64,000 bases of DNA from Escherichia phage WPEC3: the sequence record PV611058; one strand, written 5' to 3'. Positions within the stretch are counted from its first letter, which is position 1, and each line of letters opens with the position of its first letter. This document shows positions 47,446-58,033 of the stretch, piece by piece. The notes beneath the pieces are model-generated. The model saw only the letters and a program-made list of their open reading frames with translations, was not told the origin of the DNA and ran no database searches. The position numbers and the translations under genes were made by a program.

Positions 47446-48864
47446 TTAACCTAGTGATTCAAGAATACTATTAGAGAACACCTCAACAGCACTATCACGA
47501 ATTTCTAAGATACGAGTATAGTCGTCACAGGTGTTTTTGTCAAATCTAAATTCAATAAACACTGGTAAAAATAGTGATGGCTCGCCAGTTCGCTTATCGA
47601 ACACAATATCATTGCACTCTACTGTCACTACTTGACCAATGAGTTCTTGCATTCTTTCCCAAATGGTTTTAAACGTCCATTCTGCGTCTTTCTCTTTAAT
47701 TCCAGTACCTACATTAACTTTCAATGTACCACAAGCACTTTCCAGTTGTAAAGAACCAAGGCTACCTTTACGCTTACCTTCACCTTCATTGAAACCAACA
47801 ATACGCAAGTCCAATTGCATTTTAAGTTTCATTTTCAACTGCTTAGGAGAAGTGTGAGATTTCCAGATACCATCTTCACATTTCAGTACTGAACCCTCTT
47901 CACCTTCGTTCATTAGTTCACTATTGTACTCAAATGCTTCTTTGATGTTTAGAACTTTACGGAATCCAACCATACGAACAAAATCACTACCGAGTTCGTT
48001 AATTGCATCTACTAAGATCTCACGGCGTTCTTTACGTTTTACATCCCATACACCTTCACAAAATGCATCATATGGAACAACATCCCATAGAACGAATACA
48101 GTACGCATTGCTTCATTCTGACTGATGCTATCTTTACCAGCTTTCTGGATAATACCGTTACCAGTAGTGCGTGGGAGAATGGTTTCTCCATCATTGTCCA
48201 GTACTACACCTTCACCCATAAAGACTACACCACTACTAAAACGTTCATCTTTACTTTGGATAATGTGAGCAAGACCTGCCATCTCACCATCACGACAACC
48301 TAGGAAGTCGTATAGTTTACCATTACGGGATGTAGAAGTTAATGAACCATTAATGACAACGTGGTTCAAGTACTGACCATCCATTTTAACTTCTGATATA
48401 GCATAACCATAATCTTTGAAGTTAATGTTCTTTGCAGTCTTTTTGTCAATCAAAGAACAACGCATGTATGGTTCGTCTTTGATGAAACCTTTCCCGAACA
48501 CATCATTACAGTTCTTTTCTTGGATACCACAATCAAGGTTCTTCGTGAGCATTTTACGAAGAACTTCCTGGTCATCTTCTGATACAGAACCCAGTACTGA
48601 AGAAATGAAGTCACGCCCAGCATTTCCGGTCACACCACGTTTGTAAATGCATTCTAGCTTATCAATTGCTTCGTCTAATGTCATATGTTGGTATACATCA
48701 TCAGCTTGTGGTAGCTTTTTATACCCACTTACAATTGAAGGGTCTAGTGTATATTTCAGTACTTTTTGTAATGTTTGGTTATCTTTGTTTTGTTCAAGGA
48801 TAGCTTTTTTACCCAGAGTACTGCTAGTATTTTTAATGCTTTCAAGAATTGCTAAAATGCTCAT
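47446..48864 (-). CDS. ATP-dependent DNA ligase (T4 gp30-like)
   Basis: 472 aa; N-terminus MSILAILESIKNTSSTLGKKAILEQNKDN mirrors T4 ligase; KxDG adenylation motif EVKMDGQ. Confidence 0.85.
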   Translation of the reverse strand: MSILAILESIKNTSSTLGKKAILEQNKDNQTLQKVLKYTLDPSIVSGYKKLPQADDVYQHMTLDEAIDKLECIYKRGVTGNAGRDFISSVLGSVSEDDQEVLRKMLTKNLDCGIQEKNCNDVFGKGFIKDEPYMRCSLIDKKTAKNINFKDYGYAISEVKMDGQYLNHVVINGSLTSTSRNGKLYDFLGCRDGEMAGLAHIIQSKDERFSSGVVFMGEGVVLDNDGETILPRTTGNGIIQKAGKDSISQNEAMRTVFVLWDVVPYDAFCEGVWDVKRKERREILVDAINELGSDFVRMVGFRKVLNIKEAFEYNSELMNEGEEGSVLKCEDGIWKSHTSPKQLKMKLKMQLDLRIVGFNEGEGKRKGSLGSLQLESACGTLKVNVGTGIKEKDAEWTFKTIWERMQELIGQVVTVECNDIVFDKRTGEPSLFLPVFIEFRFDKNTCDDYTRILEIRDSAVEVFSNSILESLG

Positions 48865-48875
48865 TGTATATTCCC

Positions 48876-50078
48876 TTATAGATAATACTTTCCAATGTAA
48901 AGTTTATTACTTAGTGATAGCTGGACGTGACAAGGTTTTTCTTGGTAGTAACGAGTTGATGATGTTTTATTTTCTGTTGGTGGGAAGAAAGGAGAACGGT
49001 ATCCATTCCATGTACCAAATGATACATGTTCGTTTAAATCCACATCCATTGTCATAATACCATTAGCATCAATTTCAACTGGATACGCACTGTATCGTTC
49101 AAATACATCAGTGTATTGAAGAATATAATCACCATTGCGACCATAATAACTTCTGGTTGTATTGTTCTTTACACCAAAGAAAACACGATATGCCTGTTCA
49201 TCAACTTTACACATGAACGGTACGTTCTCATTGAATCGTCCATTACTCATTATATCATCAGGATTGATTTCTTCGTACTTTACTTTCAAATCTTGTGCTT
49301 TAAACGACTTATCACTTATCAGTACTGGAATATTGCTTTCACATAATGGGTTACTTCGATTTCGTTGGATATTTTGCCAAAATGCATTAGCTTTAACAAT
49401 TTCATCTTGAACTGTAGTTTTTACATTCAGTGCAGCACTTGGTTCTAATGCATAAGTTTCAAGACGAGCATTAAGAGCATATGTCCCACGAGTAGTATTA
49501 TATACTAAGTGATACTTGGAACTCTTATCAGAAAATGAAAACTCTTTAGTTTTCTTGATACAAATAGCATTTACTTTACCACAATAATAGTAATCTTCCT
49601 TATTGTGTCTAAAACCATCACCCACTTTCAATTTAGAAACAACTTCTTTTTGATGTTCTTTCTTATTCTCCTTCTCAACCAATTTAGCAAAGGTTTTAGT
49701 TTTACCGTTAATTAGTTCTAAACTATTATTAAAGAACATAGGTTCAACAAATACACCCTTAACAATATCATTATTGATGATAAGGTCGTTCATGTTTTTA
49801 GCACTCACCAAGAACTCGAAACCTTCAGGGTGACGTATGGTGAAGTATGTTTCACGAGCATGAACAGTGAGCTTATGTACCACAGAAAACCCAATTGTAG
49901 GCACATTATCAATCCATAGTGAAGGTAGATTGTTTTTCTTAGCCCAGTACTCGGCCTTTTCTTTTTTAGTCTCAAACGCTTTTGTGTGTGATTTTGTGGC
50001 ATCTATAATGTAACCAGTAACTTGGTTATGATTTACATATGAACGAGCCACAAATAACTTCTCTGGAAAATCCATCAA
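48876..50078 (-). CDS. hypothetical protein
   Basis: 400 aa ORF. Confidence 0.55.
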   Translation of the reverse strand: MMDFPEKLFVARSYVNHNQVTGYIIDATKSHTKAFETKKEKAEYWAKKNNLPSLWIDNVPTIGFSVVHKLTVHARETYFTIRHPEGFEFLVSAKNMNDLIINNDIVKGVFVEPMFFNNSLELINGKTKTFAKLVEKENKKEHQKEVVSKLKVGDGFRHNKEDYYYCGKVNAICIKKTKEFSFSDKSSKYHLVYNTTRGTYALNARLETYALEPSAALNVKTTVQDEIVKANAFWQNIQRNRSNPLCESNIPVLISDKSFKAQDLKVKYEEINPDDIMSNGRFNENVPFMCKVDEQAYRVFFGVKNNTTRSYYGRNGDYILQYTDVFERYSAYPVEIDANGIMTMDVDLNEHVSFGTWNGYRSPFFPPTENKTSSTRYYQEKPCHVQLSLSNKLYIGKYYL

Positions 50079-50494
50079 ACAGTCCTCATTGTGCTAATTG
50101 CTTTTAATGTGTTAAACAATGCACCATATTTTACTTGCATTAGTTGATCCCCAGCAGGAAGATTCATACGCATAACAGACATGTCTTCAACCATTTCAGA
50201 TGTACATAGTACTGCTACACATGTAGTTGCATCATTTAATCCGGCTTCATTGAATTTAGCGAATGGCACTTTTCCCTGCTTACAAAGGTCATCATAATAA
50301 GAATTTAACTTATCATGTCCACCAGCATTTAGTACTACAATAGTTTCGTGGTCATAATACCATTCATCAATAATAGTACTGAAAGCAGTACCTTCATATT
50401 CTTTAATTAGTTTTATGCCAGCATGAAATGCTTGAATTCCAGCTTGTACACCTTGGCAGTACATGTTTGTTAAGCAATATAATTTCATTTCCAT
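50075..50494 (-). CDS. hypothetical protein
   Basis: 139 aa ORF. Confidence 0.5.
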   Translation of the reverse strand: MEMKLYCLTNMYCQGVQAGIQAFHAGIKLIKEYEGTAFSTIIDEWYYDHETIVVLNAGGHDKLNSYYDDLCKQGKVPFAKFNEAGLNDATTCVAVLCTSEMVEDMSVMRMNLPAGDQLMQVKYGALFNTLKAISTMRTV

Positions 50495-56597: not shown

Positions 56598-56606
56598 ATG
56601 AACTCC

Positions 56607-56864
56607 TTATAGTGGGTCGAATTTATTTTCACGTTTCGATGTATAGCGAGTTACATCATGTATTCTCGGCTTAACACCTTTTGGTTTCCTTTTCTTCTTG
56701 TATTCAGTACTACTACACCCGAAAGTATTCTCGATTCGTTTCTTACTAATCTTCACACCTTTCTTAGAGCGTTTGTGCTGTAATTCATCGATTTCTTCTT
56801 GTATTTTCCTGAATTCTGTCGGAGAAAGGGAACCGTCATTTTTATACTTAGGTTTAGCCATCAC
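56607..56864 (-). CDS. small basic protein
   Basis: 85 aa; K/R-rich. Confidence 0.5.
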   Translation of the reverse strand: MMAKPKYKNDGSLSPTEFRKIQEEIDELQHKRSKKGVKISKKRIENTFGCSSTEYKKKRKPKGVKPRIHDVTRYTSKRENKFDPL

Positions 56865-56890
56865 TTCTCCTTGTGCTAGGCTAGATAGTA

Positions 56891-58033
56891 CTAAAAATCC
56901 TTTAGTACAATTTTCATGTACTTAATAAGAGTCTCTTTGTAATCGACTTTCTTATTGTTGTACATTGCAAAGGCCAAGCCCTGACGATTCAGTTCATTAG
57001 TTAAACACTCCTGAACCTTCTTAGCGAATTCCTTTCGCTCCAAGTGCTTGTGTTCCTTGACGAAGCTTTCAACTTCATCTTGTAAAGCATTATAGCACGA
57101 AAAGACTAGTTGTTCCATTCTTAATATCTTTTGGGTAGCATATTCGTCAGTACTGAACAACTGTTTTAAATCATCACTCGAACCATTTAATACAGCTTCA
57201 TATAAATGGGAATCGATTATAATACTGTCTTTCGTTAAATGCAAAGAACAATACCAGTCGGTTTTGATTTTGCACATTGTACCATTATTTAGGATGCACA
57301 CAAAACCTTCAATGTCAAGCATTTTCTTAACTTCTTCAACACTTTCTTTGAATGTAGCACGAACAGGGAAAGTGTAATGAATATCTTTACCTGTCATGTT
57401 AGTACTGTACTGTGCAAGGCATGGAAACTTGTTACGTAATGCAGAACCACATAATAGTTCACCACTCTTGCGATGGCGAACGTTTAGTACAAATATTTGT
57501 TCAACCTGGTATGGTAATACAATACGGTACTCTGGACTTGTATACTCCAGATTAACAGTATAGCCCAAACGGTCTGCTTCGTCAATGTATTGATACAAAT
57601 TTTGGTTCTCATTGAGAAGACGAGTACTGTTAATCGCATGGTCTGAATACAATGCAGTATGTGATTTACAACGAATTACACCATCATTATCACGGTAAGT
57701 ACTGATTACTGAACCATCCAACTTAGGCATCACTACTGCAATGTCATCAAATGTGGTATCAGCAGGGAACATTGTAGCAGGATTTTCGTAAGCATTGAAG
57801 AACTTTTTCATAGTACGAGCAGCACAACGAATCATATCACCATCTTCATCAATTTCCCACATAGAGCCACGGGTTTCTAATGCATTGGGTTGCATGAAAT
57901 CGGTATATGATGCTAGACGATAACTGAATACACGATATGTTCCACCAGCAGGACTTTTATGATCCACATAAAAGAAAGCCTCACGAGTATTACATAAGTG
58001 CATTAAATCTTCATATATTTGTAAAAGGGTCAT
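56891..58033 (-). CDS. rnlA: RNA ligase 1 (T4 RnlA-like)
   Basis: 380 aa; adenylation motif KLDGS; N-terminal GGTYRVFSY...RG block colinear with T4 Rnl1. Confidence 0.85.
   Translation of the reverse strand: MTLLQIYEDLMHLCNTREAFFYVDHKSPAGGTYRVFSYRLASYTDFMQPNALETRGSMWEIDEDGDMIRCAARTMKKFFNAYENPATMFPADTTFDDIAVVMPKLDGSVISTYRDNDGVIRCKSHTALYSDHAINSTRLLNENQNLYQYIDEADRLGYTVNLEYTSPEYRIVLPYQVEQIFVLNVRHRKSGELLCGSALRNKFPCLAQYSTNMTGKDIHYTFPVRATFKESVEEVKKMLDIEGFVCILNNGTMCKIKTDWYCSLHLTKDSIIIDSHLYEAVLNGSSDDLKQLFSTDEYATQKILRMEQLVFSCYNALQDEVESFVKEHKHLERKEFAKKVQECLTNELNRQGLAFAMYNNKKVDYKETLIKYMKIVLKDF

Follow-up and report, generated by a model that had tools for sequence, protein, structure and literature searches.

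In phage T4, RNA ligase 1 (Rnl1, also known as RnlA or gp63) and polynucleotide kinase-phosphatase (Pnkp, the product of pseT) repair tRNAs that have been cleaved by host anticodon nucleases, a classical form of counter-defense. The genes rnlA, pseT, and 30, the last of which encodes the DNA ligase gp30, follow one another in that order on one strand across ~11.7 kb. Related sets of genes have been described in other phages. In 2013, the paper on Klebsiella phage vB_KleM-RaK2 (RaK2) listed a CCA-adding enzyme, Pnkp, an RNA ligase, and Pth2 (a peptidyl-tRNA hydrolase) as tRNA related, mentioned a tRNA repair pathway, and placed Pnkp (gp470) and the RNA ligase (gp464) near each other (PMC3622015). 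In 2021, Iyer et al. made the same tRNA-repair proposal for jumbo phages generally (PMC7824862). Here we describe the corresponding genes of Escherichia phage WPEC3 in a stretch of 64,000 nucleotides from its sequence record (PV611058), referred to below as the window, in which the T4 order recurs across 10.6 kb (positions 47446-58033). Judged from their sequences, Rnl1, Pnkp, and the ATP-dependent DNA ligase are full-length orthologs of the T4 enzymes, with intact catalytic residues and signs of strong purifying selection. It is likely that Rnl1 and Pnkp act as a heal-and-seal pair for tRNA, as in T4, and that the DNA ligase is a replicative neighbor. The genes and the idea of tRNA repair, CCA-adding enzyme included, are already known, because both papers are in print and the genes are annotated in relatives, more than 30 of which were deposited with the labels DNA ligase, polynucleotide kinase, and RNA ligase.

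How close is the resemblance to T4? All window genes and hairpins whose two ends are given below are on the minus strand, and three open reading frames (ORFs) lie exactly where the original prediction had placed these enzymes. Rnl1 (56891-58033; 380 amino acids, or aa) consists of a nucleotidyltransferase domain and the Rnl1-specific helical C-terminal domain and is collinear with T4 RnlA over its full length (35% identity; BLASTP E value, 2e-63). It scores 289.5 bits over residues 5-370 on the NCBIfam model TIGR02308, "T4 RnlA family," whose equivalog cutoff is 242.25. Pfam recognizes RNA_lig_T4_1 and T4_Rnl1_C (PF20819; residues 268-379; E value, 2.6e-16), and the PDB matches are 2c5u (E value, 7.6e-57) and 5tt6, T4 RNA ligase 1 (E value, 6e-56). 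For all three enzymes, functional residues were transferred from T4 through global alignments. The T4 residue lists follow Shuman-lab mutational studies for Rnl1 (R54, K75, and F77 included) and published mutational studies for Pnkp and the ligase. In Rnl1, 14 of 15 such residues are kept, the adenylated lysine K104 (T4 K99) among them; R55, K77, F79, D106, G107, E163, E242, G243, K255, and K257 also belong to the conserved set, and motifs I (KxDG), III, IV (EG), and V (KxK) are all present. The protein is 100% identical to that of phage Turkey3 and 63.8% identical to that of RaK2, and homologs are found in 1671 phage records.

Pnkp (55136-56068; 310 aa), with its 5'-kinase and 3'-phosphatase halves, is the T4 PseT ortholog, the two proteins sharing 33% identity end to end (BLASTP E value, 1e-45). 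A P-loop kinase comes before a DxDxT phosphatase, which Pfam reports as AAA_33 (E value, 2.7e-13) followed by HAD_PNKP (E value, 1.4e-42), and a PDB polynucleotide kinase, 1ltq, matches at an E value of 1.1e-37. The kinase half has the P loop GLPGCGKT(T) with K15 and T16, together with D36 and R39 (T4 D35 and R38) and D81. In the phosphatase half, all seven T4 residues are kept: the nucleophile D165, D167, R176, R213, D254, D277, and D278 correspond to D180, D182, R191, R229, D262, D285, and D286. The motif D180-x-D182-G-T is accompanied by S227 and K266. An 88%-identical locus of the PBECO4 lineage (L012) served as the reference for the ratio of nonsynonymous to synonymous substitution (dN/dS), which is 0.060 for Rnl1, 0.096 for Pnkp, and 0.046 for the ligase.

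The third enzyme, the ATP-dependent DNA ligase (47446-48864; 472 aa), is the ortholog of T4 gp30, with 31% identity over 485 alignment columns, residues 3-453 against gp30 residues 2-478 (BLASTP E value, 7e-47). Its DNA_ligase_A_M domain (PF01068; E value, 1.2e-13) exceeds the Pfam cutoff, and an OB_2 domain scores 22.7 bits, under the cutoff of 28. PDB entry 6dt1, labeled just "DNA ligase," matches at an E value of 3.9e-44, with aligned residues identical to those of T4 gp30. Motifs I (K160-x-D-G, here K160-M-D-G), IV (EG), and V (K344-x-K346) are in place, and the succession of N-terminal DNA-binding, adenylation, and OB domains is collinear with gp30. The original prediction of a T4-type DNA ligase, Pnkp, and RnlA-type RNA ligase thus holds up: the alignments to T4 run full length with E values far beyond chance, and the TIGR02308 score, the T4 alignments, and the catalytic residues put these proteins in the T4 classes rather than in different ligase or kinase classes. 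The prediction had also joined the three in one nucleic acid repair toolkit. That description suits Rnl1 and Pnkp, which belong to heal-and-seal classes; nothing ties the DNA ligase to tRNA repair. The ligase is a phage enzyme of replication, nick sealing, and DNA repair, a syntenic neighbor and not a component of RNA repair.

To which phages does this locus belong? The window has a GC content of 35%, and, with a single exception, its ORFs of 150 aa or more are encoded on the minus strand. The nearest relatives of the 10.6-kb interval are Ecwhy_1 and fEgEco12 (98.7% nucleotide identity over the full interval), followed by WPEC5, EC.P1, Turkey3, and CMSTMSU (98.0-98.6%), and the PBECO4, phAPEC6, and G17 lineage is at ~88%. 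At least 80% of the interval is covered by 31 of the 36 matching records. The matching relatives are jumbo myoviruses of ~350-380 kb, and one of them, TH47 (~98% identity), is classified in Asteriusvirus. By these matches, the window comes from an Asteriusvirus-like jumbo coliphage, with the interval forming part of what appears to be an early/middle-gene arm. RaK2 and the Asteriusvirus phages PBECO4, 121Q, phAPEC6, Ecwhy_1, fEgEco12, and Turkey3 carry orthologous genes, the block being 88-98.7% identical in the 31 records. Set against these phages, the window shows no difference of substance: there are point substitutions, certain accessory ORFs are gained or lost, and an assembly artifact occupies 38390-39842 (described below). 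For whole-genome searches, the 352-kb genome of the close relative TH47 (MT446416) was put together from eight pieces (L004-L011); it has one copy each of Rnl1, Pnkp, ligase, and Cca, the CCA-adding enzyme. A much more distant metagenomic relative, L016, was used for comparing gene order.

The gene order is that of T4, and the resemblance extends to enzyme families, domain orders, lengths, catalytic residues, strand, and a homolog of T4 NrdC.11 (RlaP; see below). Identity to the T4 proteins, by contrast, is only 31-38%, and the genes in between are different. About 19 more ORFs, mostly small and of unknown function, separate the three enzymes, which therefore mark a stretch of conserved gene order and not a compact three-gene operon. 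A phmmer comparison with the minus-strand ORFs of the window that reach 45 aa or more gave no T4 homolog for any small intervening ORF at an E value below 0.01, so that T4 alc, pseT.1-3, cd.x, and 30.x are without homologs among the small ORFs of the window. The only T4 genes with counterparts in that comparison were rnlA, pseT, 30, cd (42705-43181), and nrdA.1 (27674-28000), the last two farther along the window. Scanned against PHROGs and Pfam, the intervening ORFs returned just families of "unknown function," apart from a zinc ribbon and a lead to Pth2, which are taken up below. In L016, the order is Rnl1, three small ORFs, and Pnkp, then, farther on, PTH2, a 406-aa protein, and DNA ligase, and beyond these ClpP and dCMP deaminase.

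Are the three genes expressed together? A terminator-like hairpin with a T-run (55106-55132; 11-bp stem; -18.4 kcal/mol) begins 4 nucleotides past the Pnkp stop codon, and the 70 nucleotides at this site are identical in L012. A second terminator-like hairpin (59307-59326; 8-bp stem with 5 GC pairs and a T-run) lies upstream of the gene run that contains Rnl1. Because of these two hairpins, Rnl1 and Pnkp probably share one predicted transcription unit of ~4.2 kb that is bracketed by them and leaves the ligase outside.

One could also take the entire 10.6-kb interval, with the ligase and two metallophosphoesterases included, to be a single co-functioning "nucleic-acid repair island." The genes of the interval are all co-oriented and tightly packed, and the order Pth2, 400-aa protein, ligase is conserved in both L015 and L016. 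The two metallophosphoesterases are a lambda-phosphatase-like protein (50997-51755; 247-252 aa), which matches PDB entry 1g5b, "serine/threonine protein phosphatase," at an E value of 5.1e-16 and is labeled a NinI-like serine-threonine phosphatase in relatives, and a calcineurin-like protein (46635-47426; 263 aa; Pfam Metallophos E value, 5.5e-14) encoded directly downstream of the ligase. Lambda phosphatase is reported to have 2',3'-cyclic phosphodiesterase activity (PMC2190708). The terminator-like hairpin past Pnkp, however, parts Pnkp from the genes downstream, and the small ORFs in between have no detectable function and no T4 homolog. The ligase allele, moreover, has been swapped between close relatives: that of TH47 is just 65.5% identical, whereas Rnl1 and Pnkp of TH47 are 93-98% identical, which indicates that, in evolution, the ligase is a module of its own. 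A co-functioning island of this kind is therefore most improbable. The metallophosphoesterases were also considered as core end-healing enzymes and rejected, since the lambda-phosphatase-like gene lies in a segment (51006-52838) that has no counterpart in TH47, no Metallophos gene was called in L016, ligase neighborhood included, and the calcineurin-like protein, whose gene is found in L015, has no PDB sequence match. The lambda-phosphatase-like gene is an accessory and not part of the conserved block.

The ligase gene itself is a mosaic. In the comparison of window positions 47436-48377 with TH47, the 5' part of the gene has no nucleotide match longer than 400 nucleotides. The flanking genes are 92-98% identical in the same comparison, and within the lineage of the window, the ligase is 98.7% conserved.

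Which other genes of the window bear on tRNA repair? The first is a Pol-beta nucleotidyltransferase of the RlaP family (PF10127), encoded at 17797-19035 (412 aa), which is the homolog of T4 NrdC.11 (BLASTP E value, 6e-14). Its Pfam match is well above the cutoff (62.1 bits versus 23; E value, 8.8e-17), and the nucleotidyltransferase motif can be read from the translation as G16-S17...D28-T-D30. RlaP enzymes add one or two nucleoside monophosphates to damaged RNA 3' ends, by which over-trimmed tRNA regains function (PMC12776372). The gene lies outside the coordinates covered by the original prediction, which overlooked both RlaP and the Pth2-fold protein described below. A search for the second T4 RNA ligase, Rnl2 (RnlB), came back empty: none was detectable in the 352-kb TH47 genome (best tblastn E value, 1.9), and phmmer found no match among the window minus-strand ORFs of at least 45 aa. 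The search for tRNA genes was productive in TH47, with five, and ARAGORN and Rfam found no tRNA gene or other RNA in the window.

The second is a class II CCA-adding tRNA nucleotidyltransferase (4593-5708; 371 aa), with an E. coli Cca-like head and neck. Its PolyA_pol head is recognized by Pfam (E value, 5.7e-19), and residues 1-204 match positions 1-204 of the 409 positions of PRK10885, the model for E. coli-type CCA addition and repair (E value, 1.4e-83). Because the C-terminal half is unmatched, the total score of 281 bits stays below the equivalog cutoff of 451. Motifs A (GGYVRD...DKD), B (RRD), and D (EDPLR) can be read from the translation. In E. coli Cca, the HD domain carries phosphohydrolase activities; Pfam detects no HD phosphohydrolase domain in the phage enzyme, which thus departs from the E. 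coli-type multifunctional Cca. That the window encodes a CCA-adding enzyme, as originally predicted, is borne out by the PRK10885 match and the class II motifs.

What is this enzyme for? The original prediction had it restoring damaged tRNA ends, and the alternative is that it chiefly matures the phage's own tRNAs, a role unconnected with counter-defense. Here, the tRNA genes must be taken from the relative TH47, because the window holds none. In TH47, ARAGORN finds Thr(TGT), Asn(GTT), Ser(GCT), and Arg(TCT) in a cluster at 160-165 kb, which also holds a fifth, intron-split Met(CAT). An encoded 3' CCA is missing from four of the five (Thr, Asn, Arg, and Met) and present only in tRNA-Ser, so CCA addition is needed simply to mature the phage tRNAs. 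E. coli tRNA genes, for their part, encode CCA, and the host keeps just modest Cca activity for repair. The lack of an HD domain fits maturation as well, and a maturation role for the CCA enzyme was also what the authors of the RaK2 paper proposed (PMC3622015). On the other hand, the support from tRNA genes is borrowed from a relative, the window has the CCA gene ~50 kb away from Rnl1 and Pnkp, and in TH47 it is far from the tRNA cluster (333 kb versus 160-165 kb). T4, moreover, relies on host Cca for its CCA-less tRNAs. Maturation and repair are compatible in any case, since the same activity rebuilds CCA ends trimmed by nucleases. We regard the chances that maturation is the chief role as evenly balanced; it is at least as well supported as counter-defense. 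The proposed restoration of tRNA ends is thereby sustained only in part: the enzyme is real, but it would serve equally well in tRNA maturation, and the HD domain is absent. Among the papers searched, there was no experimental demonstration of a phage CCA-adding enzyme acting in counter-defense.

The tRNA cluster of TH47 has a feature of its own. A group I intron (Rfam RF00028; 100.5 bits) lies within it at L007:15219-15532, which is MT446416 162219-162532, and splits the tRNA-Met(CAT) gene in the anticodon loop directly after CAT. Spliced in silico, the gene yields a canonical 76-nucleotide tRNA by ARAGORN. With default settings, ARAGORN overlooks the split gene, and with the intron option it miscalls it as Arg(acg). 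A literature search found no earlier report of a split tRNA-Met intron in this phage group.

The third gene lies inside the Rnl1-Pnkp-ligase block. Located at 50075-50494 and encoding a protein of 137-139 aa that relatives label just "hydrolase" or "hypothetical," it is a candidate peptidyl-tRNA hydrolase. The protein scores 22.7 bits on Pfam PTH2 (PF01981), where the gathering cutoff is 23. A profile of close homologs gathered a family of 1274 cluster representatives; PTH2 is matched at an E value of 0.01 or less by 25 of 60 sampled members, and Pth2 enzymes are the only PDB matches of the profile. Structure points the same way. The AlphaFold2 (AF2) model, with a mean predicted local distance difference test (pLDDT) score of 77.5, has Pth2 enzymes as its top 13 Foldseek PDB matches (probability, 1.00; template modeling [TM] score, 0.43-0.65), and the gene in the equivalent position of L016 has a precomputed PTH2 match. 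The dN/dS is 0.083. Compared with the archaeal and eukaryotic Pth2 structures 1xty, 2zv3, and 1q7s, the phage protein shares the fold (TM score, 0.5-0.65), the motif Q-x-x-H-A, which is invariant, and the acidic character of the "DAG" position, where Asp has given way to a nearly invariant Glu (E83). It is unlike them in being ~25 residues longer, in having an extra C-terminal helix, and in sharing only 13-21% identity. The Lys of "GK" and the Asp of "DAG," which we take from the S. solfataricus Pth2 literature to be catalytic, are not found in it, and because these canonical positions are changed, we call it Pth2-fold and not a confirmed Pth2. Homologs occur in 269 phage records; the 30 sampled include KVP40-like, Aeromonas, PVP-SE1-like, and jumbo phages and no T4-group phage. 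The survey of Iyer et al. is silent on a Pth2-like gene inside the Rnl1-Pnkp-ligase block, as it is on CCA-less phage tRNA genes (PMC7824862).

The Pth2-like gene is separated from the DNA ligase by a conserved gene of unknown function (48876-50078; 400 aa). Nothing in Pfam, NCBIfam, or the PDB, whether by sequence or by fold, matches its product, although the AF2 model is confident (pLDDT, 81). The protein resembles only uncharacterized proteins of other large phages in BFVD (among them Yersinia phage fHe-Yen9-04, Bacillus phage W.Ph., and Agrobacterium phage Atu_ph07). The order Pth2, 400-aa protein, ligase is retained in L016, whose 406-aa protein is 32% identical. Directly upstream of the Pth2-like gene is one for a 75-aa CxxC zinc-ribbon protein (50485-50712), which resembles anti-TRAP and the DnaJ central domain (E values of 5e-7 and 3e-6, respectively, both below cutoff); the same pair of genes is seen in L015.

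Does all of this amount to a capacity broader than that of T4, as the original prediction ventured? In part. A CCA-adding enzyme and a Pth2-fold protein are gained relative to T4, but RlaP is common to both phages, and Rnl2 was not detected here.

How might these proteins work together? If Rnl1 and Pnkp are the tRNA heal-and-seal pair that we consider likely by analogy with T4, Rnl1 would seal the ends through lysyl-AMP (K104) and the AppRNA pathway. Its C-terminal domain, going by T4 biochemistry, would direct the ligase to tRNA anticodon loops, and sealing would undo an attack by PrrC-type anticodon nucleases. RlaP could replace a nucleotide that had gone missing at the break, the Pth2-fold protein could free damaged peptidyl-tRNA of its peptides, and the CCA-adding enzyme would rebuild, or create, tRNA 3' ends. 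The following points weigh against this reading. (i) The counter-defense role has been demonstrated for T4 only, this phage being known here from its sequence. (ii) Individual residues deviate: T4 Rnl1 K119 is H125 here, the sole nonconserved position among the 15; T4 Pnkp R126 stands opposite Q141 in a gapped region, with R142 next door; and the position of the canonical "GK" lysine is Q17 in the Pth2-fold protein and variable across the family. (iii) Sigma-70 promoter-like sites are not enriched (71 versus 73.8 in shuffled sequence), and because they are no commoner than in the shuffles, it is the hairpins by which the shared Rnl1-Pnkp unit is defined. (iv) T4 gp63 is annotated with a second activity, tail-fiber attachment, with which the sequence of Rnl1 in the window is compatible.

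The last point raises the question of whether the two enzymes are kept for other roles, Rnl1 as a tail-fiber attachment catalyst and Pnkp as a kinase/phosphatase of DNA ends or RNA turnover. T4 gp63 carries both annotations, genes in relatives are named "RNA ligase and tail fiber protein attachment catalyst," and the breadth of the Rnl1 homologs may likewise be counted for roles outside tRNA. As far as is known, E. coli strains do not commonly carry PrrC-type loci. The ligase active site of Rnl1 and its tRNA-directing C-terminal domain are, however, strongly constrained; Rnl1 and Pnkp remain near neighbors over deep divergence (T4, RaK2, and L016); and RlaP, the Pth2-fold protein, and the CCA-adding enzyme co-occur with them. 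Weighed together, these observations make it unlikely that such other roles explain why the pair is kept, and the heal-and-seal reading is to be preferred.

Several further genes of the window may be mentioned for their predicted links to RNA or NAD or for their position. A PIN-PhoH fusion protein is encoded at 35494-36933 and a Nudt16-like NUDIX hydrolase, resembling the U8 snoRNA-decapping enzyme, at 37624-38175. There is a weak Macro-domain match at 2777-3253 (20.2 bits versus a cutoff of 22). Beside NrdD and NrdG lie two large ORFs (21107-23836, 909 aa; and 24453-27149, 898 aa) with no Pfam match at an E value of 0.001 or less.

The artifact mentioned above concerns the record itself. The 1.45-kb segment at 38390-39842 reaches a GC content of 88% in a 35%-GC genome. 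Horizontal transfer was considered for this high-GC anomaly at 38-40 kb and rejected, because the segment is made up of adapters, homopolymers, and read-length pieces and so is an assembly artifact. The homopolymer runs are C70, G76, C76, G78, and G77. Two copies of an Illumina adapter arrangement are present, in which P5 AATGATACGGCGACCACC is joined to the TruSeq adapter AGATCGGAAGAGCACACGTCTGAACTCCAGTCAC. Interleaved with these are pieces of 75-159 nucleotides, either local duplicates or drawn from elsewhere (72 kb, 238 kb, and 257 kb in TH47 coordinates). TH47 lacks the segment (the gap falls between its positions 22024 and 22026), and it is spanned by no relative in the collection. It breaks a Sir2-like gene that starts at 40376 and should come out of the source record.

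How far might tRNA rescue extend in these phages? In its most ambitious form, the proposal is that the run of Rnl1, Pnkp, the Pth2-fold protein, the 400-aa protein, and the ligase, together with RlaP and the HD-less Cca, would provide a multilesion rescue system beyond that of T4. (i) Anticodon nicks would be resealed. (ii) Excised nucleotides, as in RloC-type damage, would be refilled. (iii) CCA tails cut by immune nucleases such as Cas12a3 would be rebuilt. (iv) Stalled peptidyl-tRNA fragments would be cleared. The Pth2-fold family, with its more than 1,000 clusters and lost canonical Lys, and the fold-orphan 400-aa protein would then contribute new activities to the pathway. We consider a system of this scope unlikely.

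Overall, tRNA repair by such enzymes is textbook knowledge in T4, and the finding alone matters little. Possibly more useful are the by-products: a large Pth2-fold family with an altered active site, a 400-aa protein with no structural match in the PDB, and the assembly artifact. Asteriusviruses are among the coliphages now isolated for therapy, and the combination of Rnl1 and Pnkp with RlaP, the CCA-adding enzyme, and the Pth2-like protein predicts that these phages would tolerate tRNA-targeting defenses.

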